This document shows positions 5,589 through 53,081 of a stretch of 64,000 nt of DNA, one piece after another (within the stretch, counting starts at the first letter, position 1; each line of letters starts with the position of its first letter). Source of the DNA: an uncultured Calditrichaceae bacterium (GTDB taxonomy: Bacteria; Calditrichota; Calditrichia; RBG-13-44-9; J075); assembly GCA_964522165.1 (NCBI GenBank), contig CAZFVV010000005.1:1684-65683 (forward strand), in the 5' to 3' direction. The notes under the pieces are model-generated. The model saw nothing but the letters and a program-made list of their open reading frames with translations. It had not been told where the DNA came from and made no database searches. Both the position numbers and the translations under genes were made by a program.

Positions 5589-5627
5589 GGCAACCTTCGT
5601 TCGATAAACTCACTATTTCAAGTTGTT

Positions 5628-8630: not shown

Positions 8631-8651
8631 CTCTTTGTTTTGCTCACCTTC

Positions 8652-31981: not shown

Positions 31982-34900
31982 TTATTGCATCAGGAGCATT
32001 TTTCGCGCCTGCACGAACGCCGGTTTCCCCGGATTCGATCCCGCGGAAGCGGGTGCGCCGGGGGAGAGCGCGTGTATGATAATGCGGTAAATGTACACGC
32101 CGCTGGCGACCTTTTGCCCCCGGGCATCCCTGCCGTTCCAGGTTACCCGGTAGAACCCGGCCGGCTGGATTTCCGATACCAGGGTGGCGACTTTTTGCCC
32201 CAACAGGCCGTACACCGCCAATTCCACTTCCCCGGGCGCGGGAAGCTGATAGCGGATCGCGGTTTCCGGGTTAAAGGGATTGGGGTAATTCTGCGCCAGC
32301 GCGAAGGTTTCCGGCAGTTGCTGCTCCGCTTTGCTGAGCATTAGCCGCTTGACCCGGGGATCGCGGATCTGCACCGTCGCCCCATCGTTGAGCGTATGCT
32401 CCGCAAGCGCCTGCCCGTCGGCCATCTCTTTTAGGAGGTATTTCACCGCTTCGCTCCCCTCCCCGCGGCGGAAACGCAGGGTGAGGGGATAATTATCCGC
32501 TTGCAGCAGGATTTCCGCCTCGCCGGCGCTGCTCAGGCGGGTGTGGTCGCTGAAACGGGCGTCGAAAATTCCTGCGGGGGGAAGCGGGGGCAATTCAAAA
32601 GAATAACGCCCGCTTCCGGTTTGCGGATTTACTTCCACAAAAAGGGTTTGCCCGGCGCCCCTCGCGTCGCGAATCTCCAGAACGCTGAAGCCGGAGAGAT
32701 CCGGGGAAGCGAAGATATTCCCCGGGGAAACTTTTCCCTGCCCCGCCGCGCAGGAAATCGTGATGCTTCCCGGGGCGCTCGCTTTGATCCAATATCCTTT
32801 CCCCGTTTCCAGGGCCACGGCGGAGAAATACGCCCCGCTGAAGCCGAACAAGGTGTTGGGAACGATGATATTCCCGGGATCCAGCACCCCGGCCAGCGGC
32901 GCGTCGCAGGAAGGCCCGCTGATCAAATTCCAACCGGCGTTCAGGGCGATCTCGCAGCTTTCCAGGGCCCGGCCGGTAATGGCGGGAGAGGCCGCCGCGG
33001 GGAAGCGCAGCCAGTAGCCCTTGCCGGTATCCAGCGCGGTCTGCTGAATGTAGGTATTGTCGAACCAGAACAGGGTGCCGGGAATGTGGGTGGGGAACAG
33101 CGCGCCCACCGAAGGATCGCTCACCTGCGCCGGCAGGCCCAGGAGATTCCAGCCCTCCTGAACGTTCACCACGAACTGTTCCAGCAACACCCCCTGCACC
33201 CACACCGAATAGCTGCGCGGCGGCAGGGAGATTTCGACCTCTCCGTTGGCGTTTACCACCGCGTACAACGCGCCGGAATTGCCCAGCACGTCGGTGAGGG
33301 TATCGCCGGGGGCAAGATTCATGGAAGCGACGTTCACCCCGTGAGTCACCTGGAGCGGCTCCCCGGCGTAATTGATCGCCGCCAGCACGTCGCGCCCGCC
33401 GGGAGCGCCGCTGAGTTGATAGAGCAGGGTGGTGTGATCGTACCCGGAGGTAAAATTTTGTGTGTAGGGAGTGCCGAAACGGCTGAGATAATCCCGCGCA
33501 GTGGCGCCGAAGATATAATTTTTGTGCGTCTCTATCAACCGGTCGATGCGATATTGCAGTCCCTTGTGATAATAATCATCGTAAAAAACGCAGGGCAGGC
33601 CGGCCTGGTTGTTGGTGAGAATGTAGGCGTAGGCAAGAATGGGATCCACCTCCACCGGCTGGCCGGGATCGCGGAAATCGTGGTTGTTCACAAAAGTGAC
33701 CACGTTGAAGCCGCTGGCGCCCTGGGCGTCCACCATGCCGGCGTTGAAGACGTTGCGAACGTCGTAGCCGAACTGGTCCGAAGCGGCTTTGAGGGCAAAA
33801 CGCAGGGAGAAATCGAATATCCGGGGAGAAATCGCCGCTTTGGTGTCGGCGTCCATGTTCGCCAGCACGTTGTCCACCCACTGTTTGAGCAAAAAGGGAT
33901 TCCCGTCGAAGAATTCCCCTACCACCAGGCCGGGATCGATGTTCTGGTCGTGCAGAAAATCCAGCAAATCGCCCACAAAATCCGGCGGGAAGTGCTTCAC
34001 CGCATCCATGCGGAATCCCCGTATCCCCGCGTCTTCCCACAGCCAGCGGCTCCAGCCGAACAGCACGTCGCGGGTGCTCTGCACGTTCTGGTCGTAATCA
34101 TAGAAGAAATACATCGCGTCCCAGTCCCCCGCCAGTTGGGTAGGATTGCCGTTGGGCCTGAAATTCAAGTAATTCATGGCTCCCTGGCCGCTGGGAAGGT
34201 TCTGGAAATCGGTGTAGGTTTGATAGGCGATGCTGCTCTCGATATTTCCGGGGACGCCGGTATAATACAGCTCCGCCACGGTATGGTCGGAATAGTCTCC
34301 TAACCCGTTCACGTTGCGATTGTTCAAGTAGATGAAAATGGTATCTCCCGCGGGATCGAAGTCATCCGCGCCCAACGCCAGGGCGAATTCATCGATGCGG
34401 CAGCCCAGGGCATCGATGTTGGCGAGCATGTCCACTCCCAGGTGGATGCTGTCGGGAGGCTCGCCGCAACCCCCGCCGCCGTTCGGCTCGCTCTCCACCT
34501 CCGGCGGCAGCCCCTGGAAGCCCACGGTGTTGGTTTGTAGGTACACCTTGTAGGGTTTATCGAAGAAATTGGGATGCTCCGATTTGGAGGCGATCTTGAA
34601 ATAGTATGTTCCAGTTCCCCGGCCGCTGGCTCCCCCGATGGGGAGCGCCAGCCGGAAGCGGTCCGAGGGATAGGGCTGGTCGCCGTTCTGGATTTTGCTG
34701 AAGCTCATATTGCGAATCCAGCCCGCCACCGCGGGATTATCTTCGGCCCGGCCGCCGTTGCGGTGATTATAGACCACGTCCGCCACCGCTGCCAGGCCGA
34801 GATTGTTCAGTTCCGCGACCAGGGCGTCCACCGCCGCCCGGCTCCCGAAGCCGGTGGGACCCTGCCCGAATTCGCCTAAGTCGAACAGATCCTGGGGATC

Positions 34901-35146
34901 GTAGCCGTTGCTGAGAGCGCCGCCGCTGGCGCGGGAGAGCGGGGGCAGCCAGATATCGGTGAATCCCGCCTGCGCCAGTTCCGGCGCTTTCAGGCGCAGG
35001 GTATCGGCCCACACCGCTCCCTGGGCGGTTTTGGGGTAATCCCAGTACCAGCCCTGGAAGAGGAAATCCTGCCCTAAAGCGGTTGCCGGGAGAATCGAAC
35101 CAACGATCATAAGCGCTCGAATCGCCAGTTGAAAAGCCATGTTCAT
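31982..35146 (-). CDS. GH13 alpha-amylase family glycoside hydrolase with a T9SS C-terminal sorting domain.
   Basis: A signal peptide, FQGWYWDYP, GH13 catalytic-region motifs (VYNHRNGG, GFRMDAVKH) and a C-terminal [17 protein letters not shown]...LGQKV are present. The start is trimmed to MNMAFQ. Confidence 0.85.
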   Translation of the reverse strand: MNMAFQLAIRALMIVGSILPATALGQDFLFQGWYWDYPKTAQGAVWADTLRLKAPELAQAGFTDIWLPPLSRASGGALSNGYDPQDLFDLGEFGQGPTGFGSRAAVDALVAELNNLGLAAVADVVYNHRNGGRAEDNPAVAGWIRNMSFSKIQNGDQPYPSDRFRLALPIGGASGRGTGTYYFKIASKSEHPNFFDKPYKVYLQTNTVGFQGLPPEVESEPNGGGGCGEPPDSIHLGVDMLANIDALGCRIDEFALALGADDFDPAGDTIFIYLNNRNVNGLGDYSDHTVAELYYTGVPGNIESSIAYQTYTDFQNLPSGQGAMNYLNFRPNGNPTQLAGDWDAMYFFYDYDQNVQSTRDVLFGWSRWLWEDAGIRGFRMDAVKHFPPDFVGDLLDFLHDQNIDPGLVVGEFFDGNPFLLKQWVDNVLANMDADTKAAISPRIFDFSLRFALKAASDQFGYDVRNVFNAGMVDAQGASGFNVVTFVNNHDFRDPGQPVEVDPILAYAYILTNNQAGLPCVFYDDYYHKGLQYRIDRLIETHKNYIFGATARDYLSRFGTPYTQNFTSGYDHTTLLYQLSGAPGGRDVLAAINYAGEPLQVTHGVNVASMNLAPGDTLTDVLGNSGALYAVVNANGEVEISLPPRSYSVWVQGVLLEQFVVNVQEGWNLLGLPAQVSDPSVGALFPTHIPGTLFWFDNTYIQQTALDTGKGYWLRFPAAASPAITGRALESCEIALNAGWNLISGPSCDAPLAGVLDPGNIIVPNTLFGFSGAYFSAVALETGKGYWIKASAPGSITISCAAGQGKVSPGNIFASPDLSGFSVLEIRDARGAGQTLFVEVNPQTGSGRYSFELPPLPPAGIFDARFSDHTRLSSAGEAEILLQADNYPLTLRFRRGEGSEAVKYLLKEMADGQALAEHTLNDGATVQIRDPRVKRLMLSKAEQQLPETFALAQNYPNPFNPETAIRYQLPAPGEVELAVYGLLGQKVATLVSEIQPAGFYRVTWNGRDARGQKVASGVYIYRIIIHALSPGAPASAGSNPGKPAFVQARKMLLMQ

Positions 35147-35190
35147 GCCAGGTATCCTTATAGATCGGTTAAGAATAACTTTGTTAATTT

Positions 35191-35250
35191 CAAAACGGAG
35201 GAGTGCAAAATTTATTTTGCAAAACGGAGGAATGCAAAATTTATTTTGCA
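35191..35250. promoter_or_regulatory. Two tandem 29-bp direct repeats, each containing the perfect 18-bp palindrome TGCAAAATTTATTTTGCA. Likely a dimeric-regulator operator pair upstream of the amylase gene.
   Basis: Palindromes lie at 35204-35221 and 35233-35250 with 29-bp centre spacing. They sit 45-105 bp upstream of the amylase start codon. Confidence 0.4.
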
Positions 35251-35256
35251 CTGCCA

Positions 35257-37122
35257 TCACGCTTCAGTCCAATATATCCGCGCCGCGGGGGTGATGTTGG
35301 TGCTGGGAGAAAGCTCGTCGTAAGAGAGCACCGCCAGGCCCGGAAACTCCCGCTCCAGGAGATCGCGCACCCGTTTTCGAATGCAGGCGATGGTCAAAAT
35401 GGCCGGGAGGGGGTAGCCGGGCGTTTGAGGCAGCAGCGCCAGCTCAGAGCGGATCCCCTGGCGTAAATTTTCGATCTCCCCGTCGCTTAGCGGTTTCTTG
35501 CCGCGGTCGCCGTTCTCGAAAGCGAGGTGCTCCACCAGGCGCGTTTCCCACTGCGTATCCAGCAGATAGACGTTGAGGGTGCTTTGCCAGCGCCCGTAGG
35601 TGTATTTGTGGCTGAGGTACTGGCGCAGACCGGAGCGGGCGAACTGCGCCAACTGCTCCCGCCCCGGCGTTTTCCCAACTCCGATGTCCGGGTGCAGCGC
35701 CAGGGAATCGTCAAAAATGATGTATTTGGAAGGATCGGTTACCACGGCCTGGTAGTGCAGCAGGCGCTCCAAAATGCTGCGCAAATCCCGCACCGACAAC
35801 CCCTCCGCCAACAAATCCCGCACCACCCCGGCCAATTGGGCGGGGGAATAGCGCGCCAGCGCCGCGGAGATGATCTCCGGAAACGCCTGGTCGAGCAGGG
35901 CCAGGTCGTATTCCAGGGTTTCTTTGTCGATCAAACACGCGGCATGGCGGCGCACTTCCGCAGCCAGCGCCAACACGATGTAACCCACTTCGTCCCACAC
36001 CGTCAGGCCCTCTGCTTCCAATTTCTGGCGCTGGGAAGCATCGGCGAGGCTGTTTTCGCGCCGGTTGGCGGGGTTGACTGCCAGCGCCGCCCCGGGCAGG
36101 CCGTAATCCGCCAGGCGCGCGGGGGTTTCATTCACCAGGATTTGCCCCGGGTGAAGGCCGGGGCAGGGATGCGAGCGCAGGTGGTTGATGCGAATGGCAA
36201 AGGTTTTGGGCGGGAGAGTTTTGTCGGCCACGAAGCGCACCCCCGGCGAGCGCACCCCTAACTCGTAGAACATCCCGTCGGAAAAGAGGGTGAAGGTCTC
36301 CCGCAAACGGGAATCGGCCTCCTCGCTCCACACCGAGAGCGTTTCCGAGGCAGTTGTTTCGGCGGATTCAGGGGGCGCGGGAAGAATCTGCCGCAGGTAA
36401 TCGGGATGGATTTCAATATCTATTTTGAGCGGGCGCAAATGCGCAATCAGCGATTCGGCGATCTCTTCATCGGAAACCCGGTGTTGCAGCGATTCACACA
36501 GCCGGCTCAAAACCGTTTCCGTTTCGGCGATGGAAATCCGCAGCTTCAGGAGCGAGCGCAGGAGGTTGAGCAGGCGCTCCGCGCTGAATTTATCCAGTGC
36601 GGCGCAGAGCGTTTCCGGCAGCAACTGCCGGCCCAGGGCGCGGTAAGCCTGCGCGTTGGTTTTCGCCAGCAGCTTCTCCGGCTGCAAGCGGATGATTTCG
36701 GTTACCAACCCGGCTAAAAAATCCGCCAGCAGCGGGATTTCCACCGCGAAAACAGCGGTCGGTTCTCCCGCCGCTCCGGGAGGGGAGATGACCGCGCCCA
36801 GCCAGGCCTGCGCCCCGAAAGTTAGCGGCAATTTGCCCAATTCCCCCACCCCTAAGGCTTCCCATAACGGGCGAATCAGTTCCTCCGGGTACGGAAGCAG
36901 TTGGTTGTGCAGCCGGATTTGCAAGGGTTTCCCGGCCGAACCGCTTTTCAGGGTAATCGCCGGCTCCCCGGGGATGCCCAATTCCGCGGCCATCGCGCCC
37001 AGCTCCTCCTCTAAGCGGGAGAGAAACGGACCGGAAAAATTCGTTTCCTTTGCCAGCAGAGCGTTCAGCTCCTCGCAAAGCTCGATCTTCAAAGAAATTT
37101 TAGGGGGCGCTGAGTGGTTCAT
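35257..37122 (-). CDS. Cytoplasmic FlhA/FHIPEP C-terminal-domain (FlhA_C)-like protein with no transmembrane export-gate domain. Possibly two tandem FlhA_C-like repeats.
   Basis: Segments align to the Salmonella FlhA cytoplasmic domain. LSVRDLRSILERL resembles FlhA IRDMRTILETL. ILVNETPARLADYGLPGAALAVNP resembles WLAINPGTAAGTLPGE. The C-terminal LLEREFPGLAVLSYDEL resembles FlhA LPQLVVLSNLEL. This was recognised by eye from memory of the FlhA sequence. Confidence 0.6.
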   Translation of the reverse strand: MNHSAPPKISLKIELCEELNALLAKETNFSGPFLSRLEEELGAMAAELGIPGEPAITLKSGSAGKPLQIRLHNQLLPYPEELIRPLWEALGVGELGKLPLTFGAQAWLGAVISPPGAAGEPTAVFAVEIPLLADFLAGLVTEIIRLQPEKLLAKTNAQAYRALGRQLLPETLCAALDKFSAERLLNLLRSLLKLRISIAETETVLSRLCESLQHRVSDEEIAESLIAHLRPLKIDIEIHPDYLRQILPAPPESAETTASETLSVWSEEADSRLRETFTLFSDGMFYELGVRSPGVRFVADKTLPPKTFAIRINHLRSHPCPGLHPGQILVNETPARLADYGLPGAALAVNPANRRENSLADASQRQKLEAEGLTVWDEVGYIVLALAAEVRRHAACLIDKETLEYDLALLDQAFPEIISAALARYSPAQLAGVVRDLLAEGLSVRDLRSILERLLHYQAVVTDPSKYIIFDDSLALHPDIGVGKTPGREQLAQFARSGLRQYLSHKYTYGRWQSTLNVYLLDTQWETRLVEHLAFENGDRGKKPLSDGEIENLRQGIRSELALLPQTPGYPLPAILTIACIRKRVRDLLEREFPGLAVLSYDELSPSTNITPAARIYWTEA

Positions 37123-37168
37123 CTCTGGTGCGTTATTTTTATGTTAAACTTTGCGTGAAGCGTACTTC

Positions 37169-37270
37169 GTAATGCGTATTGCGTAACAAAAACGGAATAC
37201 GCAATACGTTTCACGCTTCACGTTTCACCCCAATCCTCCCCCCCGATGCGCTTGCGCCACTCCGGCTTCA
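37169..37270. repeat. Direct repeat copy A flanking the higBA cassette. It is a degenerate duplicate of the 3' end of the 38114-43498 gene plus a TTCACG-rich element.
   Basis: It is about 85% identical to 38071-38173. It contains CCCGATGCGCTTGCGCCACTCCGGCTTCAG. The higA stop codon lies at its edge. Confidence 0.6.
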
Positions 37271-37630
37271 GTTCACCTGCGGTTGAATCAAAATGGAGGC
37301 GGGAATATTCAAGCCCCGTTCAAGGTTGCGAATCATTCGCAGTGACAACGGCCGTTTGCCATTCAATACTTCCGAAACTTTGCCTTTGCTGCCTATGAAT
37401 TGTTGCAGGTCCTTCTGCTTCAACCCCAACTGTTCCATACGAAAACGAATCGCTTCGATCGGTGTCGGCTTGTCAATCGGCCATCGCTTCTCTTCGTAAG
37501 CATCCACAAGGGTCATCAAAATATCGAGCTTGTCTCCTTCCGGGGTGCCAACTTCAGCCCCCCAAAGACGCTCGATTTCCCCTAAGGCTTCTGTATGATC
37601 AGCGTCTGTCTTGATAGGCTTAATATTCAT
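37268..37630 (-). CDS. higA: HigA-family antitoxin (XRE-type HTH).
   Basis: An HTH region is present and the gene lies immediately downstream of higB with a 2-nt gap. Confidence 0.8.
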   Translation of the reverse strand: MNIKPIKTDADHTEALGEIERLWGAEVGTPEGDKLDILMTLVDAYEEKRWPIDKPTPIEAIRFRMEQLGLKQKDLQQFIGSKGKVSEVLNGKRPLSLRMIRNLERGLNIPASILIQPQVN

Positions 37631-37632
37631 AA

Positions 37633-37929
37633 TTAGATCTCCTTTGCGTCTATTTTGTCATACTCGGCATGTGTGCCTATGAAACGGATAAATACACCTT
37701 TTCGCCTATAGTCGATTGCACACACAAGCCTGTAAGCGTTGCCCTTTATATTGAAAACTATTCGATCATTGCTGATAATACTGGCATTGGGATATTGATT
37801 CTTTACCTCTTGTGGAGAATCCCAATCGGCTTTTTTGGTTTCATGATACCATGCCTCAAGCGGAGTCTTCGCCTCGGCGTGGCCGGCTTCCCAGAATTCT
37901 CTAAGTGTTTTTCTTGAAAATATACGCAT
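37633..37929 (-). CDS. higB: HigB-family type II toxin (RelE/ParE superfamily).
   Basis: The protein begins MRIFSRKTLREFWE and contains NAYRLVCAIDYRRKGVFIRFIGTHAEYDKIDA, typical of HigB. It is AT-rich. Confidence 0.8.
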   Translation of the reverse strand: MRIFSRKTLREFWEAGHAEAKTPLEAWYHETKKADWDSPQEVKNQYPNASIISNDRIVFNIKGNAYRLVCAIDYRRKGVFIRFIGTHAEYDKIDAKEI

Positions 37930-38070
37930 GTAACAATGTAAACAGTTCCCGAATCGGGAAAAAGGAGTTTAAATCGCGATTCGAACCGTTCTCGTGTAAT
38001 GGTCACCTTTTGAGGAATTTTCCATTAGAACCATACCCTTGATGGCGAGTGTGAAACATGAAGCGGAAAA

Positions 38071-38173
38071 CGTAATGCGTAACAAAAACGGAAAACGAAA
38101 CACGCAATACGCTTCACGCTTCACGCTTCAACTCAATCCTCCCCCCGATGCGCTTGCGCCACTCCGGCTTCAG
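38071..38173. repeat. Direct repeat copy B. It overlaps the 3' coding end of the giant TPR / FlhA_C gene.
   Basis: It encodes the terminal residues ...ELKPEWRKRIGGRIELKREA* of the giant protein. Its partner is 37169-37270. Confidence 0.6.
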
Positions 38174-41100
38174 CTCCGGGAAGGAGAGGACGCGCACCCG
38201 GGGGAATTCGATCTCTAAGAGCCGGTGCAGGTAGAAGCGAATTCCTTCGCTGCGGGCGATGATCACGGTTTTCCACTGCGGCTGCCCTTGCAGCGCTTCC
38301 CGAACCGCGCTGAGCAGGTTCTGGGTGGGCTGCGGTTCCAGGGCTAAAAAGGTTCTGCCGCCGGATTGGTGAAGGTTTTGTGTTATCTCTTGCTCGAATT
38401 CCGCGGAAAGCTCCCAATAACGGTTGCCCGCTTCATTGCCGGGCAATTTATCGCGCAGGGCCAGCCGCGCCGCTTCTACCGCGGGAACCAGGTCCTCACG
38501 GTTGGCAGCGTGGCGATGGAAAAGCTCCGACAACAGCGCCAGATCGGAGACCGGCGCGCCTTCCTTCACCAGCCAGTGCAGCATCTCCGTGAAGCGGTTT
38601 TTATCCTCCCGCTGCGGTAGGCGCTGCGTTATCAGCTCTCGCCGCTGGCCGGCTTCCCGGCCGTCTTCTTCCTGCCAGATCGCCAGCATGTCCCCGGTTT
38701 TTTGGGCGTCTAAAAAAGCGCCGATATGTTCATAAATAACCGCCTCCAGGTGGTAAGCCAGGTACTCGAAGCCGTCCCAGGTATCCGCGGCGGCAAGGCC
38801 GGTTTTTTCCAGGAGCGGTTCGGGAATCCAGGCGCCGCTCATCTCCCCGGTGAGGGGATCGTAGGCCGGCTGCACGGCCATTTTCTGCCCGCTCGCCAGC
38901 CCGGGAAAGCGCTGGTATTGCGGTAGAAAGCGTTTGCCCGCTTCTACCGCGCCTAACACAATGGGCACTTCCATGATCATGATAATGTAACTGTTGGGGG
39001 CCATGCCGGAGTTGCTCAGCCGCCCGCGCAATCCCGGCACTTTCAAACCAAGTTTTTCCTGAATGCGCTGCTGCGCGTTGGGGTAGTGGATTTTGAAGAG
39101 CGGGTGATCATCCCCATACGCCGGCGCGGGGGGAGAGAACAGCCCCGCTTCTACTTCGATGGCGATGGGGGTGACCACCGGGAGCAGCGAAGCGGAAGAA
39201 GCGGCGTTGGGAGCGGTACGGGGATGCCGGCGGATGAGAGGGTATTTTTCCCGCACCAGGGTGAGGCGGGCGGTTTTGGCGTCCGCAGCGGCGGTTTGAT
39301 CCCCGCGCCCGGCGAAGCAGGTTTCCCGGTTATTCAACCAGTCTTTCAGCAGATAGTAACTTTCCCCCTCGCTGGTATGCGGCAGAATTTCTTGCACGAT
39401 CCTGCCGAACGGCCCCGCGGCAGGATCCCCGCGCTCTTGCGCCATCTTTTCGAACTCCGCCAGCGCCTCCCGGCGCTCCCCCATGATCCAGAGCAGGCTG
39501 CCGCACTGCAGATGGTAATCCGCCCGGCTTTGCTCTGCGAACTTTTCATCGAGTTGCAAGGCCCGGCGATATAATTCCAGGCTTTCCGGCCAGCGCTCCA
39601 GGGATTTCAGGCTCCCGGCTAATTTCAGAAGCACCCGCGCGTCCGGGGTCTGCTTGCACAATTCCCAGGCTTGCAGGGCGTTCTCCTTCAGCCCCAGGCC
39701 GTTCAGTTTTTCCCCGATCCAGTAGTAAAAATACCCGGAGCGGTTGCGCTCCCGCGCCGCTTCGATCAAAAAATCCTTCGCTTCTTTGAACCTGACCCCG
39801 CGGTATTCCGGGAAGCCTTCCCGCCCCGCGGAAAAGGCCTCGTCATAGAGAACGTAATTCAAGGCCCAGTGAGGATAGAAATACTCCAGCGCCCAGTTTT
39901 CCCCTAAGTAGAAGATGGCGCGGTTGAAGCGCCGGTAATCCAGCAAATCGCGGTGGCGGGGATGGCGGAGCAATTCCCGGTAGGCGGGATTTTTGAGCAG
40001 TTCCCGGTACTCTTTGCTGCGAAAGCGCAATTCCCGGCGGCGATTGCCGCGCAGCAACGCGAAAAACTGCGGATTCTCCAACAGCCGGGCATAGAGGGGA
40101 GAATTCTTCAATTCTCCGTAGGCGGAATCTTTGAGCAGGGTGTCCTCCAGGGATTTCTTCAAATCGTCGCGCAGCTCGAACAGTTCCGTGGGCCAGAAGC
40201 GCCCCTGGATTTGGGAAAAGAGCCCCATCGCATCGGCCTGTTTCTGGGCGCGAAAAACCACTCCTAAGTAGTGCAAAGTATGGATGTGCAGATCCTTGAG
40301 CTCCTTTTCCCAGCGGATGGCCGGTTGCGCGGCCAGCCCGGCCAGGTTGAAACGCTGGCGGCCGTTTTCGCGAACCCACAGGAGACGATGGGGGAGCAAA
40401 CTTTCCAGCACTTCCAACGCCTCGCTCGCCAGCCCATCGCTTTCCCGGTGGCATTGCCCGGCGCTGGCCCGGTGCAGCTCCCGGGCTTCCCGGGCGCGGC
40501 GAATCTCTTCATCGCCGCTTTCGATCTGCTCTTCCAGGGTCTTGAGCAGTTTCTCTTCCGGGGTTTCGCCTTCCGGCAGGCTGGAAAATCCGCTCCCGGG
40601 GAAGCGCGGCGCGGGCGCCTGGGCAATGTTGGCGGAAACCGGCAGGCCTGAAGGCATGTTGGAGGAAGGCCGCACGTTCAGCAGCATGTCCACGCTTTGC
40701 TGCGGCTCCGGCTCCCCGGCCGTGGAAACCGCCCGCTCCGGGAGGCGCCTTTCCCGTCGCCGGGTGATTTTCTCCCGCAGCTGCCGCGCCTCCTGGCGCA
40801 GCTTCTCGGTTTCCCCCTGCAAGCGTTGGATTTCCTGCTCTTTTTCCCCGGCCAGGCGCTGCTGCTCCCCGGCGTCGTTCTCCTTTTTCTCGGCTAAGCG
40901 GGCGTTCACTTCCGCCAGGGCTAATTTGCCGTCCGGCCAGTGCGGTTCCAGCGCCCGCACTTGCAACAAGTGGGTTTTGGCGGCTTCGTAATCCCATTTC
41001 CACTTGTGGATCTGGTGCAGGTTGAAAAAGGAGATCACGAAGGCGGGATTCAATTGCACCGCCCGCTCGTAAGCGGCCCGGGCCTGCTCGAACATGCGCT

Positions 41101-43498
41101 CGTCTCCGTCGCGGCGGTAGTAATGGAAGCAGGCGTCCCCGAAATCGTTGTAAACGAAGGCCAGGATGGAATTGCGCACCCGCGGGTTGGCCTTGTTCTT
41201 CAACTGCTCGTTGATGAATCCGGCTAAAAAGGGATCGCCGATCAGCCCGCACACCGCTTGCACCTCCGCGGCCGGCGGATCGTCGGCCAGGATTTCTCCT
41301 AAGCGGCGGAAAAAATCGCCCGCGGAAACTGCTCCCCCCTCTTTCCATCGCGCGGAAGTCTTCCACCATAAGGGATGTTGGGCGGCCTGTGTGGAAATCC
41401 ATTCCCCCAGGGAAGCTTCTTCCGCCGCGCCGGTCTCCCCCGCCAGCGCGCTTAACAGCCGCCCCAATTGTTCGGCGGCGGATTTGGTGGAAACTCCTGC
41501 GGAGCGGTTCGCGTTCCCCGCCCGTTCCAGAGGAGTCTTCGACAAGGCCGCAGTTAGCTCCGCAAAATCCCGCTGCGGCTCGTCGAACGCTTCCCAGGCG
41601 CTCCAGCGCCGCAGCGCGGTATCCAAATAGCGTTGATAGCGCCGGAAGAGCGCCTCCCCGATGAGGTCGAAAAAATAGTCCACGTAATTGGTGATCGCCT
41701 GGGTGACGATGGCGGAGGCCGCGGCGGTGTAATGCTCGTAAGCGCCGACGAAATCCCCCTGCTCCGCGGCAATGCGCGCCAGGCCGTGGTCCAGCTCCGC
41801 CACGAAAGTCTCCCGCTTGATCTCTTTGTATTCCCGCCCGCTCAGGAAATTTTCCCGCGCTTCCCGCAGGTCTTCCGGGCCGCCCAACAGCCAGCGGATA
41901 TAGCCGCGGTTGGCCCAGGCCCCCACGTTGCCGGGATTGAGCTTCAACACCTCTTCATATTTTTTCAGCACCGACTCGGCGACGTTGCGCTCCAGCGTAG
42001 GGCGGGAGCGCCACAATTTTTCCGCTTTGATCGCCAGGGAAAACTGCGCTACCTCGAAGCGCGGCTCCAGCTCCACCACCCGCTGGAAGATTTGCATCTC
42101 CGTGCGCAGGTGCGCTTCCACCTCGGCGTACACGAAATTATAGTGGGCGTTGTCGCCGGCGCGGTTGGGGTCCAGCATCTCCGCTTTCTTCAGCCAGTCC
42201 CAGGCGTCCGGCACGGAGCCGAGGTACATCCAGGCCAGCGCGGTGGTTACGCAGGCTTCGAAGAGATACTCTTTTCGACCGGGAACGTCATCGGGCAGAT
42301 TTTCCAGGCGCTCCACCGCCCGCTCCGCGATGGGGCGGGTTTCGAAAACCGGGTAGAGCTTCTGCCCCAGGATGCCGGCCAGAATCCGGCGATACAACAG
42401 CATCCGGGCGTAGCCTAATTCCGCCCGCGCCAGCAAGACCTCCCGCACCCCTAAGCGCGGGAACAGAAACGCGGCCAGCCGGCGGAGCCAGCGGCGCAGG
42501 CGCAGCAGCATTCGCAGCCCCTGCTGAAACAGTTTTTTGCCCCGGGTGGAAGAGAGCGGCTGCAAGGCGGAATCGAAATTCTCGATGGCCTGCTGGTAGA
42601 GCTTGCGGGCTTCGTCGTACGCTTCTAAGGTGTTGGAACGGGCGTAGTCCTCCGCCTCGTAGAACAGCGCCACGGCGCGGAAATAGTCCGAGGGGAGCAG
42701 CTCGATCTTCTGCTGTACGTTTAGTTGGATTTGCTTGTAGATTTCCGTGGCCACCGTAAAGTAGAGCCGCTCCAGGATTTGCTCGTATTTCTCGGCGTCG
42801 CTGTTGAGGGGAACCGCGGGCGGCTGGCCGGGCGCACCGCCGGCTTCGGTTTCCAGGGGGTAGCGGATGGGGTAGGCCAGGGTTTCCGGGCTGCCGGGAG
42901 GCCCGATGCGCACCCGGGGCATGATCTCCAACATCCACTGGCCGTGGCGGTCTTTGCGCCGGGTATAGTGCCCGCGGATGTGAATGTGCGACTGGTAGGT
43001 CTCCTTGTTCTCCCCTTCCAGAAATTGATCGTCCAACAGCAGCAGCCGCCCGATGCGCTCGTTGATCTTCTCGCACAAATGATGCGAGAGCAGCGCCAGG
43101 TTGGGGTCCGCCTCCGCACTCTCCCCGGCTACCGGCTGGAAGGTTTCCAGGGAGAAGGTGTAGCGGAAGGGCTGGTTGGACTCCTTCAGCCAGAAGCGTT
43201 TCCAGACCAGCAGCGCCCCGAAAACGGCCCCGGAGATTACCGGAATCAGCAGCAGTTGGCCGGCGGAAAGCTGCTGCCACCAGGCCGGGTCGAGCAGGTT
43301 GGCCCAGGGGAAATTGCGGATGGTTTCCCAATCCAACTCGCCCCACCAGCGGGAGATCTCTACAAGAATCGGCGCTAAGGAGATGAGGAAGCCGATCCAG
43401 CCGATCTTCCCGAGGCGCTTATTCTGCCGCAGCCCCTGGTCGATGCCCCGGATTTGCTGCAAGAGGTCCTGGGGAGGGATGAATTTGATCCAATTCAT
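38114..43498 (-). CDS. Giant (1794 aa) membrane-anchored protein with two N-terminal TM helices, an extended TPR-like/helical repeat region with a coiled coil, and a C-terminal FlhA_C-like domain.
   Basis: Hydrophobic helices lie at about residues 35-55 and 95-112. Helical repeats with YRELL-type periodicity are present. The coiled coil reads EQQRLAGEKEQEIQRLQGETEKLRQEARQLREK. The C-terminus (IAIEVEAGLFSP..., ...VIIARSEGIRFYLHRLLEIEFPRVRVLSFPEL) parallels FlhA_C. Confidence 0.7.
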   Translation of the reverse strand: MNWIKFIPPQDLLQQIRGIDQGLRQNKRLGKIGWIGFLISLAPILVEISRWWGELDWETIRNFPWANLLDPAWWQQLSAGQLLLIPVISGAVFGALLVWKRFWLKESNQPFRYTFSLETFQPVAGESAEADPNLALLSHHLCEKINERIGRLLLLDDQFLEGENKETYQSHIHIRGHYTRRKDRHGQWMLEIMPRVRIGPPGSPETLAYPIRYPLETEAGGAPGQPPAVPLNSDAEKYEQILERLYFTVATEIYKQIQLNVQQKIELLPSDYFRAVALFYEAEDYARSNTLEAYDEARKLYQQAIENFDSALQPLSSTRGKKLFQQGLRMLLRLRRWLRRLAAFLFPRLGVREVLLARAELGYARMLLYRRILAGILGQKLYPVFETRPIAERAVERLENLPDDVPGRKEYLFEACVTTALAWMYLGSVPDAWDWLKKAEMLDPNRAGDNAHYNFVYAEVEAHLRTEMQIFQRVVELEPRFEVAQFSLAIKAEKLWRSRPTLERNVAESVLKKYEEVLKLNPGNVGAWANRGYIRWLLGGPEDLREARENFLSGREYKEIKRETFVAELDHGLARIAAEQGDFVGAYEHYTAAASAIVTQAITNYVDYFFDLIGEALFRRYQRYLDTALRRWSAWEAFDEPQRDFAELTAALSKTPLERAGNANRSAGVSTKSAAEQLGRLLSALAGETGAAEEASLGEWISTQAAQHPLWWKTSARWKEGGAVSAGDFFRRLGEILADDPPAAEVQAVCGLIGDPFLAGFINEQLKNKANPRVRNSILAFVYNDFGDACFHYYRRDGDERMFEQARAAYERAVQLNPAFVISFFNLHQIHKWKWDYEAAKTHLLQVRALEPHWPDGKLALAEVNARLAEKKENDAGEQQRLAGEKEQEIQRLQGETEKLRQEARQLREKITRRRERRLPERAVSTAGEPEPQQSVDMLLNVRPSSNMPSGLPVSANIAQAPAPRFPGSGFSSLPEGETPEEKLLKTLEEQIESGDEEIRRAREARELHRASAGQCHRESDGLASEALEVLESLLPHRLLWVRENGRQRFNLAGLAAQPAIRWEKELKDLHIHTLHYLGVVFRAQKQADAMGLFSQIQGRFWPTELFELRDDLKKSLEDTLLKDSAYGELKNSPLYARLLENPQFFALLRGNRRRELRFRSKEYRELLKNPAYRELLRHPRHRDLLDYRRFNRAIFYLGENWALEYFYPHWALNYVLYDEAFSAGREGFPEYRGVRFKEAKDFLIEAARERNRSGYFYYWIGEKLNGLGLKENALQAWELCKQTPDARVLLKLAGSLKSLERWPESLELYRRALQLDEKFAEQSRADYHLQCGSLLWIMGERREALAEFEKMAQERGDPAAGPFGRIVQEILPHTSEGESYYLLKDWLNNRETCFAGRGDQTAAADAKTARLTLVREKYPLIRRHPRTAPNAASSASLLPVVTPIAIEVEAGLFSPPAPAYGDDHPLFKIHYPNAQQRIQEKLGLKVPGLRGRLSNSGMAPNSYIIMIMEVPIVLGAVEAGKRFLPQYQRFPGLASGQKMAVQPAYDPLTGEMSGAWIPEPLLEKTGLAAADTWDGFEYLAYHLEAVIYEHIGAFLDAQKTGDMLAIWQEEDGREAGQRRELITQRLPQREDKNRFTEMLHWLVKEGAPVSDLALLSELFHRHAANREDLVPAVEAARLALRDKLPGNEAGNRYWELSAEFEQEITQNLHQSGGRTFLALEPQPTQNLLSAVREALQGQPQWKTVIIARSEGIRFYLHRLLEIEFPRVRVLSFPELKPEWRKRIGGRIELKREA

Positions 43499-50208: not shown

Positions 50209-50281
<73 letters not shown>

Positions 50282-50332
50282 CAGTAAAAAATGAAAAATG
50301 CAAAGTGAAAATTTATAATTTGCATTGAGACT

Positions 50333-50405
50333 GGCGCCGTACCCAAGTGGCTAAGGGAAAGGTCTGCAAAACCTTCATTCGGCGGTTCGAATCCGCCCGG
50401 CGCCT
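50333..50405 (+). tRNA. tRNA-Cys (anticodon GCA).
   Basis: The acceptor stem is GGCGCCG/CGGCGCC. The anticodon loop reads CUGCAAA. The discriminator is U73. The T-arm is GGCGGTTCGAATCCGCC. Confidence 0.8.
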
Positions 50406-50467
50406 CGAAAGATTTTTTCCTTCTTTCCGTTTCAAACCATCTTGCTCTTATTCCCGGAAATTTTTGG

Positions 50468-50520
50468 CGTAAACAAGAAAGACCTCAAAGGTCTTAAAGA
50501 CCTTTGAGGTCTTTCTCGGT
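50468..50520. terminator. Bidirectional Rho-independent terminator (17-bp perfect stem GAAAGACCTCAAAGGTC / GACCTTTGAGGTCTTTC, TTAA loop).
   Basis: T-rich runs flank the hairpin on both strands. It lies between tRNA-Cys (+) and the small Cys-rich gene (-). Confidence 0.65.
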
Positions 50521-50546
50521 CTATTTCGGGATCAAGCAAAGCGAAC

Positions 50547-50696
50547 CTACTTCTTTCCCGTGCCTTTGCACACCGTACAGTTCCCGCTGCCGCCGCACTT
50601 GGGGCACTTGCTGCTGCCTAAAATGCTGCCCACTTTGCCCGATCCGTGGCAGCGGCTGCACTTGCCGTTTCCGTTACAGCCGGGACAGGTTGCCAT
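50547..50696 (-). CDS. 49-aa cysteine-rich protein with four CxxCxGxG repeats (DnaJ-type zinc-finger-like). It is absent from the ORF track.
   Basis: It encodes MATCPGCNGNGKCSRCHGSGKVGSILGSSKCPKCGGSGNCTVCKGTGKK. GGAGG lies 5 nt upstream of the ATG. A strong terminator follows. Confidence 0.5.
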   Translation of the reverse strand: MATCPGCNGNGKCSRCHGSGKVGSILGSSKCPKCGGSGNCTVCKGTGKK

Positions 50697-50731
50697 TAGA
50701 GCCTCCTATATACTTTGATAAGATTTATGAA

Positions 50732-50977
50732 TTATTTATTCTTCCGAAAAGTCACCACATAATACATCACATATTCCGCTTTTCTGCCAAATAATGACCC
50801 CAGGCAGCCCGGGGTTGCTAAAACGCCAATCTCATCCACCCGATAGAATTCCCAGCCTTCTGCTGTCTGGCTATTTGCAATCGATTCCAGATAAGCTGCC
50901 GCTTCATTTCCACGTTTCTCTTTCATTTTCACCGTAACGTCGGGAGGGATTTGAAGCATTTTGTATTCATATGCCAT
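50732..50977 (-). CDS. DUF4177-like small protein.
   Basis: It is an 81-aa ORF reading MAYEYKMLQIPPDVTV...EGWEFYRVDEIGV. Confidence 0.5.
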   Translation of the reverse strand: MAYEYKMLQIPPDVTVKMKEKRGNEAAAYLESIANSQTAEGWEFYRVDEIGVLATPGCLGSLFGRKAEYVMYYVVTFRKNK

Positions 50978-51053
50978 TTGTGGATCCTCCAGTTGTTTTA
51001 GTGGGTTGCGCTGATAGGTTCAGAAAATGGAATTCGGATCATTCCTCACTTCA

Positions 51054-51305
51054 TCAATAGTAAGAATAGCTGAATAATCCGGAGGACTCGCAGGTAATTA
51101 ACTCGCGTCGAGAAAGCGAGCGTTCCCTCACAACTTCCTGGCCGTCGCAATAAATAGTGCCGCTACCAGGGCCATAATCGAAATAGGCTTCGCCGTTCTG
51201 ATCAGAATAAACCTCTTTATTCCCTTGTCCCTCGATCCATACAAGAACTCTCGTGCCACTGCACGGCTTGCCGTTTTCCCATTGAATCTTTACAATCATT
51301 GACAT
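51054..51305 (-). CDS. Small hypothetical protein (about 83 aa).
   Basis: It reads MSMIVKIQWENGKPCSGTRVLVWIEGQ... GGAAG lies 5 nt upstream of the internal ATG. The track ORF is extended at the N-terminus. Confidence 0.35.
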   Translation of the reverse strand: MSMIVKIQWENGKPCSGTRVLVWIEGQGNKEVYSDQNGEAYFDYGPGSGTIYCDGQEVVRERSLSRRELITCESSGLFSYSYY

Positions 51306-52397
51306 AGTGACTTCCTTTGATGTGATAACTTCGTAGAAATTGGAGAACTGCAAAACCGCTTTAATACCCCGCCTCCCAACCCCTGGCGGCTCTCTCCTAA
51401 AGGCCTGCCTTCCCACCAAATTTATCTTCTCAAAACGAGAATTTTTACCTTAACAACGTTGTCAACCTTTCTCCTCTCCACAATTCTTTTCCATTATTAT
51501 ATATATTCCCCACTCCCGCCAAAATATTGACAAAAAATAAAATTTTTCGACTGAAACGCCCAAACCACCCCTCCTTCCCCCCTCAATGACCACTAATGAC
51601 CACTAATGACTACGAATGACTATAAATGACGCCGCTCCGAAGGAGCCCCTTCGGGGCCGGAAAATAACAATTCTTTACCCCTTTGCCGAATGGCCCTCCC
51701 GCACTTCCCGCTCTTCTATCTCTAACAGCAGCAAATGCCCCAACAGCACCTGGATAAACCCGATCGGGCAGAGCACAATGGTGGCGATCAATATATATCC
51801 CACGACGTTATTGATGCGAATCAGCAACTTCAAGTATTCCATGATCCCGTCCCCCGCTACAACGGGTGGCTTTTGCACATTCGCGCTTCCCGGCGCCTAG
51901 CGCGCGGGCGTCGGATGCCTGGCCTTCCGAATCGTTTACGGATAAGAACCAACCCCCTGGTTGCATCACAACGCCCGCGCACCGGTTCACCGGCTCTCCT
52001 CGCATAGCCCCCCTCAAGTCTATTGTTGTCTGCCCGCAAGTTCTTGCTTCAATAACAGTGCCGATTTTCCCGGCTTGCCGTAACTTCCTGTTCTTAAACG
52101 GCTAAGCGTGAAATAGCCGAAAAGCGGATTCGGCTCTTTGTCAACTCCAGTTGGCAGAAAGCCCGCCTTATAAGGGCTTGATGAGGCGTTTGGGGAAGGT
52201 TATTCGTTGAGAATAATGAGGTTGGGGGGAGCGCCAACTGCGGTTGGCATTCAAAAGAACCGGCAAATTACGCGCTCAGAAAAAGAGCGAGGGGAAAGAT
52301 TGTTTACGCCTGAGAACAAATTCACTGTGATTTTCTATCGGTTTGTTTATAATGAGATAGCTTTAAAACAAAAAAATATCCACCAGGGGAGCAAGCT

Positions 52398-52640
52398 ATG
52401 GAAGTAGTCAATATCTCCGAATTCAAAAAGAGATATTTAACCATTCTTGAAAGAGTCGAGAAGACCAGGCAACCGATCTTAATTACCCGGCGAGGAAAAA
52501 CAATTGCCAAAATAATGGCCGTTTCCGGATGCATTGAAAAAACATCGTGGTTGGGAAGTATGTCCTCTACCGGCGTTATTGTTGGTGACATTGTCAAGCC
52601 GGTATTGGAGGAGACAACGTGGGAGATTTTCAGAAATTGA
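52398..52640 (+). CDS. Phd/YefM/VapB-type antitoxin.
   Basis: It begins MEVVNISEFKKRYLTILERVEKTRQPILITRRGK. It overlaps the downstream PIN gene. Confidence 0.6.
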   Translation: MEVVNISEFKKRYLTILERVEKTRQPILITRRGKTIAKIMAVSGCIEKTSWLGSMSSTGVIVGDIVKPVLEETTWEIFRN

Positions 52641-53028
52641 AATTTCTTTTGGACACCCATATCTGGATTTGGGGATTAATGAACCCGGAGAAATTTTCCG
52701 GTAAAGTTATTTCCGAGATAGAGAACAGCAATAACGAAATTTGGCTCTCCTCAATATCGGTCTGGGAAGCACTGATTTTAATTGAAAAACGACGACTGGT
52801 CTTAAATATACCGGCAGAAGAGTGGATTCGGAGAGCCGTAACCCAATTACCGATCCATGAAGCGCCCTTGACCATCGAAGTTGCGCTCAAAAGCAGGGCG
52901 ATGCAACTGCCGCATCAAGACCCGGCGGACCGATTTATGCCGCCACCGCGCTGGTTCATGGCTTTACTTTGATAACCAGCGATGAGCGAATTGCTCGCTC
53001 GAGTGAGATTTCGATCCTGTTTAACTAA
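52619..53028 (+). pseudogene. vapC: VapC-family PIN toxin gene disrupted by a 1-nt frameshift near 52937.
   Basis: The N-terminal PIN motif is LLDTHIWIW. After ...HQDPADRF the frame breaks. The -1 frame continues as AATALVHGFTLITSDERIARSSEISILFN*, a typical VapC C-terminus. Confidence 0.55.
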
Positions 53029-53081
53029 ACACCGGCCTTACGGTTTCTATCGCACTCAAACACTTGCGCACTCTCTTTTTT

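Follow-up and report, generated by a model that had tools for sequence, protein, structure and literature searches.

A gate-less, paired form of the SctV/FlhA cytoplasmic ring domain in a Calditrichaceae bacterium: possible subunits of an oligomerisation hub

In type III secretion system (T3SS) biology, the C-terminal ring of SctV/FlhA is regarded as a component devoted to the export gate. FlhA_C forms the nonameric docking ring for chaperone–substrate complexes in type III export, and SctV_C likewise provides a docking surface for chaperone and substrate. The SctV_C structures that best match the proteins described here (PDB 6wa6, 7qij and 7alw) contain 18 chains each, and we take them to be stacked double nonamers. 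A 64-kb stretch of a Calditrichaceae contig, referred to as the window, encodes two proteins that carry homologues of this cytoplasmic domain outside any export gate; the larger one bears a G-type domain and the smaller one an S-type domain.

Both genes are intact and lie on the minus strand, at the positions assigned to them in a sequence-only reading of this DNA (35257-37122, 621 aa; 38114-43498, 1794 aa). That reading also described them as adjacent, which holds in so far as they are neighbours and fails in the strict sense, as a higB/higA cassette sits between them. Its claim that the 64 kb contain no other flagellar or injectisome gene was upheld by a Pfam sweep, which detected no component of either system among window ORFs of at least 150 aa. 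Moreover, sctRSTU, fliPQR-flhB and export ATPase genes were found neither within the 64-kb window nor at pair loci of other organisms. The pair is flanked by housekeeping genes and not by a defence island, and the same is true of other loci of its type, in which the large subunit has a transmembrane (TM) hairpin, including L005-L007. No effector domain (CHAT, caspase, TIR, EAD, trypsin, patatin or nuclease) was detected by Pfam in the pair or its neighbours. Matches to promoter and terminator consensus sequences between 34.9 and 43.9 kb were not above the shuffled expectation, and the consensus is uninformative for this phylum. The locus contains the following features:

35257..37122, minus strand: gene of the small subunit (621 aa), in which a degenerate N-terminal domain, SD3-like or possibly SD1+SD3-like, precedes a complete S-type SctV_C-like domain
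35269..36339, minus strand: S-type SctV/FlhA cytoplasmic-domain homologue, residues 262-618
36373..37122, minus strand: small subunit N-terminal domain, residues 1-250; β-α-β-β unit and helical bundle in the AF2 secondary structure
37155..37274, no strand: right copy of a direct repeat, with a duplicated large-gene 3' end and a palindromic spacer element (repeat search, L009 alignment)
37268..37630, minus strand: higA-like HTH antitoxin gene, 120 aa (Pfam HTH_3, E 1.5e-6; PADLOC PD-Lambda-2_B N-terminal region, E 1e-44)
37633..37929, minus strand: higB-like toxin gene, 98 aa (Pfam HigB_toxin, E 5.8e-35)
38051..38176, no strand: left member of the pair of ~120-nt direct repeats around higBA, containing the authentic large-gene 3' end (repeat search, families D1 and D2; L009 alignment)
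38114..43498, minus strand: gene of the large subunit (1794 aa), which runs from a TM hairpin and an α/β domain through a TPR solenoid, a variable segment, a coiled coil and a linker to helical repeats and a G-type SctV_C-like domain
38126..39202, minus strand: G-type SctV/FlhA cytoplasmic-domain homologue, residues 1433-1791 (Pfam FHIPEP, PDB CdsV_C, clade)
39209..40408, minus strand: second helical-repeat/TPR region, residues 1031-1430, partly variable at 1100-1250 (TPR_2/TPR_12 matches)
40409..41578, minus strand: middle region, residues 641-1030, made up of a variable stretch (641-760), TPRs, a coiled coil rich in charged residues (~866-920) and a Pro/Ser-rich linker (~925-985)
41579..42796, minus strand: N-terminal TPR-like solenoid, residues 235-640 (AF2 pLDDT mostly above 88)
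42854..43171, minus strand: highly conserved juxtamembrane α/β domain, residues ~110-215 (AF2 strands 113-117, 171-182, 188-198 and 205-214; helix 132-148)
43178..43444, minus strand: N-terminal TM hairpin, residues ~19-107, with a Trp-rich loop between the helices (Kyte-Doolittle, AF2)

Homology of both proteins to FlhA_C had been proposed by eye, and the profile searches bear it out. Pfam FHIPEP (PF00771) matches the 621-aa protein with E=1e-34 (120.5 bits; residues 262-464 aligned to profile positions 342-541, plus further stretches) and the 1794-aa protein with E=7.6e-29 (101.1 bits; residues 1433-1779 aligned to positions 322-655 of 657). In both cases only the cytoplasmic C-terminal half is matched, while the membrane half (profile 1-320) is not. 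The best PDB match of each is Chlamydia CdsV_C (6wa6), with phmmer E values of 1.7e-23 for the small and 2e-18 for the large subunit, and the alignment spans the whole domain in both. The motifs picked out by eye are all present: SVRDLRSILERL at 443-454, LAVNPANRR at 346-354 and PGLAVLSYDEL at 594-604 of the 621-aa protein, and PRVRVLSFPEL in the 1794-aa protein, the terminal ...FP.l.VLSy.EL motif lying within the CdsV_C alignment of both. A C-terminal cytoplasmic domain with subdomains SD1-SD4 is found in the window proteins, and the canonical domain of about eight TM segments with its FHIPEP loop is absent: the large subunit has two hydrophobic segments, both N-terminal, against 7-9 in canonical SctV analysed in parallel, and the 621-aa protein lacks any credible TM segment. 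Judged by their sequences, both domains are complete SctV_C homologues without an export gate. The NCBIfam equivalog cut-offs are 690-770 bits and the window proteins score about 59-95 bits (TIGR01398, FlhA: 94.6 and 59.4 against 772; TIGR01399, SctV: about 90 against 692); neither protein is therefore an orthologue of FlhA or SctV.

The 1794-aa protein had been described as having two N-terminal TM helices, long TPR-like repeats and a coiled coil, and hydrophobicity, AF2, Pfam and composition agree on this layout. Kyte-Doolittle peaks at 30-48 (1.62) and 80-98 (2.10) coincide with AF2 helices at 19-51 and 79-107, and the hairpin is kept in nearly all of 120 homologues checked. The juxtamembrane α/β domain (110-215) has nearly invariant FRYT...RVRIGP motifs; it has no Pfam match, and no family was found for it. 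Pfam TPR matches fall at 514-534, 803-831 (TPR_11) and 1287-1351 (TPR_2/TPR_12), and residues 866-920 have an E/R/Q-rich, coiled-coil-like composition. The N-terminal 630 residues are unusually conserved, with 45-51% identity across phyla, and conservation within the protein peaks in the N-terminal TPR-like solenoid (dN/dS 0.07), which AF2 models at residues 235-636; a Foldseek search of the PDB with the N-terminal module returned generic TPR superhelices only. Homologue coverage falls to 0.24 at residues 651-750. Compared with Calditrichaceae MAG_33, the gene as a whole is under purifying selection (dN/dS 0.17), and codon-aligned values are 0.59 for residues 641-760, which is relaxed, 0.11 for 761-930 and 0.33 for 931-1030. 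A signal of diversifying selection in the middle of the protein (dN/dS 1.09 at 641-1030 in an ungapped comparison) was rejected as an artefact of two compensating 5-aa indels. At least 145 homologues of the large subunit were found, typically of 1000-2086 aa.

The small subunit is modelled by AF2 with pLDDT 74 and pTM 0.77. Its residues 134-211 align with its own SD3 region at 380-457 (hhalign Prob 93%, E 2.9e-7), so that, on this alignment, a degenerate SD3-like module is present in addition to the complete domain. The idea that the N-terminus is a second, full copy of SctV_C was rejected, the SD3-like bundle alone being supported (Prob 93%); an SD1-like part lies in the expected register and is suggestive, not significant (E 0.009, Prob 4.6%). 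At E<1e-86, relatives of the small subunit comprise at least 150 cluster representatives, mostly of 545-640 aa, and the gene is also under purifying selection (dN/dS 0.21).

The 902-nt cassette that separates the two genes carries its own genes at 37268-37929, 2 nt apart, in the type II HigBA arrangement, with the RelE-like HigB toxin gene first and the HTH antitoxin gene second. It is a recent insertion and lies outside the module. The ~120-nt direct repeats flank it, and higBA is missing from the orthologous spacer in Calditrichaceae MAG_33.

The gate-less FHIPEP_C domain is found in hundreds of sequence clusters from many phyla, and more than 100 homologues have the identical gate-less architecture. 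Co-occurrence of the pair, which the sequence-only reading had proposed to survey, is conserved: the two genes form a unit in at least nine phyla, both in FCB-group bacteria and in Planctomycetota (Brocadia), Acidobacteriota, Chloroflexota, Verrucomicrobiota, Desulfobacterota, Pseudomonadota and Bipolaricaulota. G and S always occur together and in the order G then S, their genes usually overlap by 4 nt, and the flanks are unrelated between phyla. Each locus has one copy of the module. Complete genomes with the pair include that of Pelagihabitans pacificus TP-CH-4 and the chromosomes OY970345 and OZ252000, and operons linked to a protease are found in Pelagihabitans, Roseibium and Ferruginibacter, among others. 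Single-polypeptide fusions of a G copy followed by S (L024, L027, L105, L121, L134, L137 and L142; 1320-1423 aa), giant-plus-short fusions (P0023, P0024) and a three-gene fission form (L088) also occur. The distribution is patchy, as a few tens of species among 185,579 matched two search motifs. No family member was found on plasmids, phages or viral contigs by tblastn of plasmid and phage records and a motif scan of IMG/VR; the plasmid matches are canonical FlhA/SctV at less than 28% identity, and the single weak match to a phage record is 22% identical and covers the C-domain only. In databases, relatives carry the label 'FHIPEP family type III secretion protein'. A full-text search of the openly accessible literature found no publication on gate-less FHIPEP_C proteins, and no curated family was found for them.

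In an NJ tree with weak deep nodes, the S clade has a bootstrap of 100% and the G clade 77%, and both group, weakly, with Myxococcota-type injectisome SctV. Mean identity is 33.5% between S and SctV, 26% between G and SctV and 19.7% between G and S, while identity to FlhA is 22.5% (S) and 21% (G); the closest canonical relatives are SctV of Myxococcota and Bdellovibrionota (~35%). As placed by these comparisons, G and S are distinct paralogue clades, each nearer to injectisome SctV than to one another. Type-A partners group together in both clades, which indicates co-inheritance.

The genes beside the relatives give some indication of the role of the pair. In 24 of 30 loci without a TM hairpin, the immediate upstream gene encodes a CHAT protein, a caspase (with or without TIR or EAD2) or a trypsin-like protease, and in the other six it has no family assignment. 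An upstream protease in this position is found in none of 11 TM-hairpin loci as against those 24 of 30 (Fisher p=4e-6; phylogenetically, the loci tallied are not independent of one another); among TM-type loci, L001 carries a trypsin-like gene at the second position upstream. The matches have E values of 1e-16 to 1e-24 for CHAT and of 1e-15 to 1e-21 for Peptidase_C14, the latter sometimes accompanied by EAD2 (E 7e-12) or TIR_2 (E 1e-12). A trypsin-like, LmuA/Avs2-like protease beside relatives matches PADLOC LmuA (E 3e-35), and a patatin was also detected (E 3e-25). A conserved companion of CHAT, of about 355 aa, has no match in Pfam, PDB or PADLOC. In L043, nSTAND1/AAA_16 is fused to the FHIPEP_C domain, the sole relative with such a fusion, while Pfam and NCBIfam detect no NTPase domain in either window protein.

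The reading we favour from these observations, tentatively, is that the pair are two subunits of a T3SS-independent oligomerisation hub that serves conflict or signalling and whose output in this lineage would be directed at the membrane. Homology, gene coupling and the fusions suggest that the G and S domains would co-assemble, like SctV_C and FlhA_C, as a hetero-oligomeric ring or as stacked rings. The 1:1 genetic coupling of two paralogues argues against a simple homo-nonamer, and the 18-chain SctV_C entries, if double nonamers, make a two-layer G/S assembly structurally plausible. Oligomerisation and activation of a sensor–effector system would centre on the G+S ring, and the large subunit would bind a trigger or partner protein through its long TPR and coiled-coil arms. 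In sister lineages the hub would be coupled to a caspase-fold protease (CHAT or C14, sometimes with TIR or EAD2), a Lamassu/Avs-like trypsin protease or a patatin and, once, to a STAND NTPase, and such a constant core with swappable effectors would match the layout of prokaryotic conflict and abortive-infection systems. In the window lineage, the trans-encoded protease appears to be replaced by a conserved module of TM hairpin, α/β domain and TPRs fused to the large subunit, so the output would most likely be membrane-directed, through perturbation or signalling on assembly. A further-reaching version, which we regard as possible and rather doubtful, is that the SctV/FlhA ring domain was exapted as the NTPase-free core of widespread immune or cell-death systems; apoptosome-like G+S rings would then activate caspase-fold, TIR or patatin effectors, the Calditrichota type would drive its fused membrane hairpin, and the ring might keep chaperone–substrate-like ligand recognition and hence serve as the sensor.

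Part of the evidence points away from a conflict role. The position of TM-type loci among housekeeping genes, the lack of carriage on the phages and plasmids searched and the lack of a PADLOC model match (PADLOC v2 returned no match for the 621-aa protein and noise at E~0.09 for the large subunit) all argue against a conflict hub, and the conservation of the N-terminal 630 aa would be explained by a conserved cellular partner no less well than by an effector. The TM-anchored TPR giant and its partner might instead be a constitutive platform at the inner membrane, used for instance in protein quality control, in organising the envelope or the pole, or to dock a particular client, with a docking ring like that of SctV_C and no role in conflict or cell death. 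Such a housekeeping scaffold would suit the flanking genes in the window and in L005-L007, the strong conservation of the N-terminal 630 aa across phyla (dN/dS 0.07), the single copy per locus with none on the plasmids, phages and viral contigs searched, and the chaperone–substrate docking known for SctV_C. We nevertheless consider it somewhat unlikely, as sister G+S loci carry caspase, CHAT, TIR, trypsin, patatin and STAND components, the phyletic spread is patchy (a few tens of 185,579 species), and no conserved client gene adjoins the pair.

The remaining readings stay close to secretion. The sequence-only reading had proposed a repurposed sorting or docking platform in an organism that uses type IX secretion (T9SS). 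Of this, SctV/FlhA modules outside any gate and a pair that is apparently one functional unit are retained, while the link to T9SS or cargo sorting is not supported and is rejected on the phyletic distribution and the lack of a linked T9SS gene. The window does encode T9SS sorting domains, namely a Por_Secre_tail (32.3 bits) at 62963-63640 and FlgD_ig-type C-terminal domains at 31982-35260 and 25105-26349; these 'FlgD_ig' matches are Ig-type C-terminal domains of T9SS cargo, and an amylase bearing one is encoded immediately downstream of the small subunit, an arrangement kept in L009. However, this amylase is not kept beyond the closest relatives, about 40 loci of the module show no linked T9SS gene, and at least seven of the phyla that have the module lie beyond the FCB group, to which T9SS is, to our knowledge, essentially confined, so that most module-bearing phyla should lack it. 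It is Sec that carries T9SS cargo across the inner membrane, which leaves a cytoplasmic docking ring without an obvious role. A gate-less platform for cargo of T9SS or of another secretion route is thus highly improbable. We give just as little credence to the view that the genes have no function of their own and are decaying remains, or plain paralogues, of a flagellar or injectisome gate; the database label of the relatives and the ~35% identity to Myxococcota and Bdellovibrionota SctV would agree with it, whereas the ORFs (5.4 kb and 1.9 kb) are intact and under purifying selection, more than 100 homologues share the gate-less architecture, the G and S clades stand apart from canonical SctV and FlhA, and no T3SS neighbour occurs at any of the ~40 pair loci examined. 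A T3SS locus elsewhere in the genome would leave this conclusion unchanged, because architecture and clade are both distinct from those of canonical SctV/FlhA.

The SctV/FlhA ring domain is thus found gate-less and duplicated into an obligate pair across many phyla, repeatedly near caspase-like, TIR, patatin and STAND components. If the hub reading is right, bacterial conflict or signalling systems would have an oligomeric hub of a new type, one that possibly works without any NTPase, and the pair would offer a natural experiment on how the SctV_C ring by itself assembles, docks ligands and switches conformation. A systematic database mis-annotation that can inflate T3SS counts in metagenome surveys would be corrected as well. 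The weak grouping of both paralogues with Myxococcota-type injectisome SctV gives the pair a bearing on the evolution of the T3SS gate as well.

Among described proteins, LapB/YciM and FimV/HubP-type scaffolds have an N-terminal anchor and long cytoplasmic TPR arrays as in the large subunit, a likeness of architecture only: the matches are generic to TPRs, no sequence kinship was found, and these scaffolds lack an SctV_C domain and a paired partner. Both window domains are nearer to SctV (YscV/LcrD/CdsV/InvA/MxiA/EscV) than to FlhA (33.5% and 26% against 22.5% and 21%). SctV has an 8-TM domain, an FHIPEP loop and T3SS neighbours, all missing from the window pair, and it is a single homo-nonamer subunit, whereas the window encodes two obligately paired paralogues. 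Unlike in SctV, the G domain is fused to a TM hairpin and TPR arrays, and the S domain is preceded by an SD3-like module. The pair differs from FlhA in the same ways, and it has no flagellar context. The TPR/STAND-caspase conflict systems (PMC7159879) and Avs/Lamassu have an NTPase core or an effector that the window locus does not reproduce: the core of the pair consists of SctV_C-like domains, most of its loci encode no NTPase, and the window locus has only its N-terminal TM module and no protease, TIR or EAD. The paper by Kaur, Burroughs, Iyer and Aravind 2020 (PMC7159879) makes no mention of FlhA, FHIPEP or T3SS. In their overall layout, the relatives of the pair nevertheless resemble these systems, as they likewise place a large TPR protein beside swappable effectors.

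The two genes form a T3SS-independent, co-inherited pair of SctV_C paralogues (cytoplasmic domains of the type III export protein SctV/FlhA), for which Rosetta-stone fusions and effector-type neighbours in sister lineages were observed. Both open reading frames lie on the minus strand as claimed, at 35257-37122 (small protein, 621 aa) and 38114-43498 (giant, 1794 aa), and the FlhA cytoplasmic-domain homology proposed in the sequence-only reading was confirmed with Pfam FHIPEP (PF00771), matched by both above the gathering score of 29.1 bits (small protein, E 1e-34; giant, E 7.6e-29, residues 1433-1779 on profile positions 322-655 of 657). In each protein the alignment was confined to the profile's cytoplasmic half, in keeping with the claimed lack of an export gate. 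The best PDB-sequence match of both is the Chlamydia CdsV cytoplasmic domain (6wa6; E 1.7e-23 and 2e-18), with alignments spanning SD1 through the C-terminal 'EFPxhxVLSyxEL' strand. Scores against the FlhA/SctV NCBIfam equivalogs are ~59-95 bits versus cut-offs near 700, and the window proteins are, therefore, homologues rather than orthologues of FlhA/SctV. The C-domains of the giant and the small protein share an identity of only 22% (E 2e-7).

The two N-terminal TM helices, TPR-like repeats, coiled coil and C-terminal FlhA_C-like module ascribed to the giant could all be located, and the small protein was divided likewise:

Giant residues 30-48 and 80-98: two hydrophobic helices
Giant residues 110-215: conserved α/β domain
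Giant residues 235-640: TPR solenoid (model pLDDT mostly >88; fold matches to generic TPR only)
Giant residues 641-760: variable stretch
Giant residues ~866-920: charged coiled coil
Giant residues ~925-985: Pro/Ser-rich linker
Giant residues 1031-1430: further helical repeats (TPR matches at 1287-1351)
Giant residues 1433-1791: SctV_C-like domain
Small protein residues 134-211: degenerate SD3 helical-bundle copy (hhalign Prob 93%, E 2.9e-7)
Small protein residues 262-618: complete SctV_C domain

In addition, both the model and an alignment that keeps the expected register but is not significant hint at an SD1-like β-α-β-β unit at small-protein residues 8-71. The best-conserved part of the giant is its N-terminal 630 aa (45-51% identity across phyla). 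A 2065-aa protein on a 722-kb metagenome contig (L089, 8001-14198) carries the same TM hairpin, α/β and TPR N-terminal module with neither an FHIPEP_C domain nor an FHIPEP_C neighbour, and so this module exists independently of the pair too.

A Pfam sweep of every window ORF of at least 150 aa found no flagellar or injectisome component, upholding their reported absence from the 64 kb. Several proteins with T9SS-type CTDs were recovered alongside housekeeping genes (Rho, RF1, PrmC, UppS, RNase R, a xanthine dehydrogenase set, FadA/B, CCA-adding enzyme, TolC-like). Three proteins (31982-35260, 25105-26349 and 62963-63640) carry at their C-terminus a T9SS sorting signal, in the form of a domain of the FlgD_ig or Por_Secre_tail type; one is an alpha-amylase of ~1050 aa directly downstream of the small FHIPEP_C gene. 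Its GTG start listed at 35260 is probably too far upstream; the signal-peptide-like MNMAFQLAIRALMIVGSILPATALG starts ~38 codons later. Between xdhC and the genes for xanthine dehydrogenase, GC content drops to 41-48% (~56% elsewhere) in an islet at 6744-9170. It contains a 628-aa ORF that matches N6_Mtase only weakly (E 8e-4) and a fragment of 172 aa resembling the AbiEii toxin (E 2e-6); the islet may be what is left of an inserted restriction or abortive-infection system. Moreover, the ~2.6 kb that come after two tRNA genes (50209-50281 and 50333-50405) are devoid of ORFs of at least 150 aa. GC skew there is strongly negative (-0.17), short tandem repeats of 10 nt occur at 51585-51630, and the region (50209-53080) may be non-coding or the decayed remains of an integration site.

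The description of the pair as adjacent genes holds for the recent past rather than for the present window, where 991 nt carrying a higB (HigB_toxin, E 5.8e-35) and higA (HTH_3, Pfam) toxin-antitoxin cassette, in the orientation of the pair, lie between them. Closest to the window are the genomes of Calditrichaceae MAG_33 (93% identity) and of a MAG labelled 'Deltaproteobacteria PRO9' (95%), which place it most probably in Calditrichota. In MAG_33 the orthologous spacer is 103 nt and cassette-free, and the 902-nt insertion in the window is flanked on both sides by copies of a direct repeat of ~120 nt (37155-37274 and 38051-38176), which duplicates the giant gene's 3' end and a palindromic GTGAAGCG-rich spacer element; the pair was therefore contiguous until recently. 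The HigA-like antitoxin (37268-37630) matches the first 121 of 402 positions of the PADLOC model PD-Lambda-2_B (E 1e-44), and the N-terminal part of that defence-system protein is therefore the same HTH antitoxin module.

Homologues of the giant number at least 145 in a word-indexed search, nearly all with the N-terminal TM hairpin. Of 1.84 billion cluster representatives, 4194 matched the small-protein profile at E<1e-3; the best 150 of these (E<1e-86) are almost all 545-640 aa with full-length coverage. The proposed co-occurrence was found in every locus with enough sequence, as a large X-FHIPEP_C gene with, directly after it, an FHIPEP_C gene encoding 460-650 aa; the two commonly overlap by 4 nt, and their flanking genes differ and are unrelated between loci. 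Carriers belong to Calditrichota, Desulfobacterota, Planctomycetota (Brocadia), Acidobacteriota, Chloroflexota, Verrucomicrobiota, Bacteroidota (including cultured Pelagihabitans pacificus), Pseudomonadota and Bipolaricaulota. At one locus (L088) the giant is split, its C-domain being a separate gene. In a neighbour-joining tree of 43 C-domains, the domains of the small (S-type) and large (G-type) subunits form clades with 100% and 77% bootstrap, respectively, and the partners of TM-hairpin loci group together in both. Both domains are fused in G-then-S order at L024, L027, L105, L121, L134, L137, L142 and in proteins P0023/P0024, copy 1 of the fused proteins falling in G and copy 2 in S. Mean identities are 33.5% (S-SctV), 26% (G-SctV), 22.5% (S-FlhA), 21% (G-FlhA) and 19.7% (G-S); S groups with SctV of Myxococcota/Bdellovibrionota, though with weak support.

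Large genes lacking the TM hairpin have a protease gene immediately upstream. The protease is CHAT in 11 genome loci that form one BLAST cluster and in further metagenome loci; elsewhere it is a Peptidase_C14 caspase, which in one case has an N-terminal EAD2 and in another is fused to TIR, or a trypsin-like enzyme that matches PADLOC LmuA (E 3e-35) as well as the protease domain of Avs2. Patatin recurs near the pairs, as does p355, a conserved protein of ~355 aa for which Pfam, PDB sequences and PADLOC gave no match and whose gene sits upstream of CHAT at L013, L014, L020, L069, L072, L080, L099, L105, L107, L115 and L140. At L126 (1807-3852), p355 and a G-type FHIPEP_C domain are directly joined in one protein. 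In a Candidatus Thiodiazotropha MAG (L043), an nSTAND1/AAA_16 NTPase is fused to a very divergent, long-branched FHIPEP_C domain next to a G+S pair:

L043, 1912-12514: four-gene array with three FHIPEP_C domains (1493-aa STAND NTPase-FHIPEP_C, 879-aa protein of no family, 654-aa G-type, 494-aa S-type)

A protease gene abuts the large gene in 24/30 non-TM loci versus 0/11 TM-hairpin loci (Fisher p 4e-6, over scorable loci that are not independent); the G+S pair is therefore the constant core, accompanied either by the trans protease or, alternatively, by the fused N-terminal TM module. A complete p355, CHAT, TPR-FHIPEP_C and FHIPEP_C operon (L069, 3899-10969) lies on a contig of a MAG labelled Candidatus Heimdallarchaeota, an Asgard archaeon, and could have arrived there by horizontal transfer or through an artefact of binning. 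MT835847.1, an unannotated record of 16.5 kb that originates from human faeces and is named 'Bacteriophage sp.', has a weak SctV_C match at 4812-5705 (22% identity, E 4e-8), probably a mis-binned bacterial FlhA or SctV fragment.

As a tentative best reading, the pair might be an oligomerisation or activation hub, in which G and S domains would co-assemble into a ring or double ring, the TPR arms would sense a ligand, and the conserved membrane-hairpin module would give the output in the window's lineage. The best-matching solved SctV_C entries have 18 chains each, which are stacked nonamers. A housekeeping membrane scaffold is the main rival and, though somewhat less probable, is favoured by the neighbourhood of housekeeping genes, by the very high conservation of the giant's N-terminal module (dN/dS 0.07) and by the absence of the pair from the plasmid, phage and viral collections searched. 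That the two are ordinary paralogues or remnants of an export gate is highly improbable, given dN/dS values between the window and MAG_33 of 0.17 (giant) and 0.21 (small protein); they are functional genes, not decaying gate remnants. Equally little credence is given to the suggested platform for handling T9SS cargo.

No curated model for the pair exists in the collections compared: NCBIfam gives far-sub-threshold FlhA/SctV matches, PADLOC none, and Pfam generic FHIPEP and TPR. Relatives bear automatic names such as 'FHIPEP family type III secretion protein', 'TPR protein' or 'hypothetical'. Gate-less FHIPEP, FlhA-like or SctV-like proteins, also with TPR, CHAT or caspase, were found described neither in full-text literature, mostly that outside subscription journals, nor, on targeted reading, in a paper on EAD and conflict systems (PMC7159879). 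The module is rated as a novel type of system whose building block is an already known domain, with the function proposed for it being putative.
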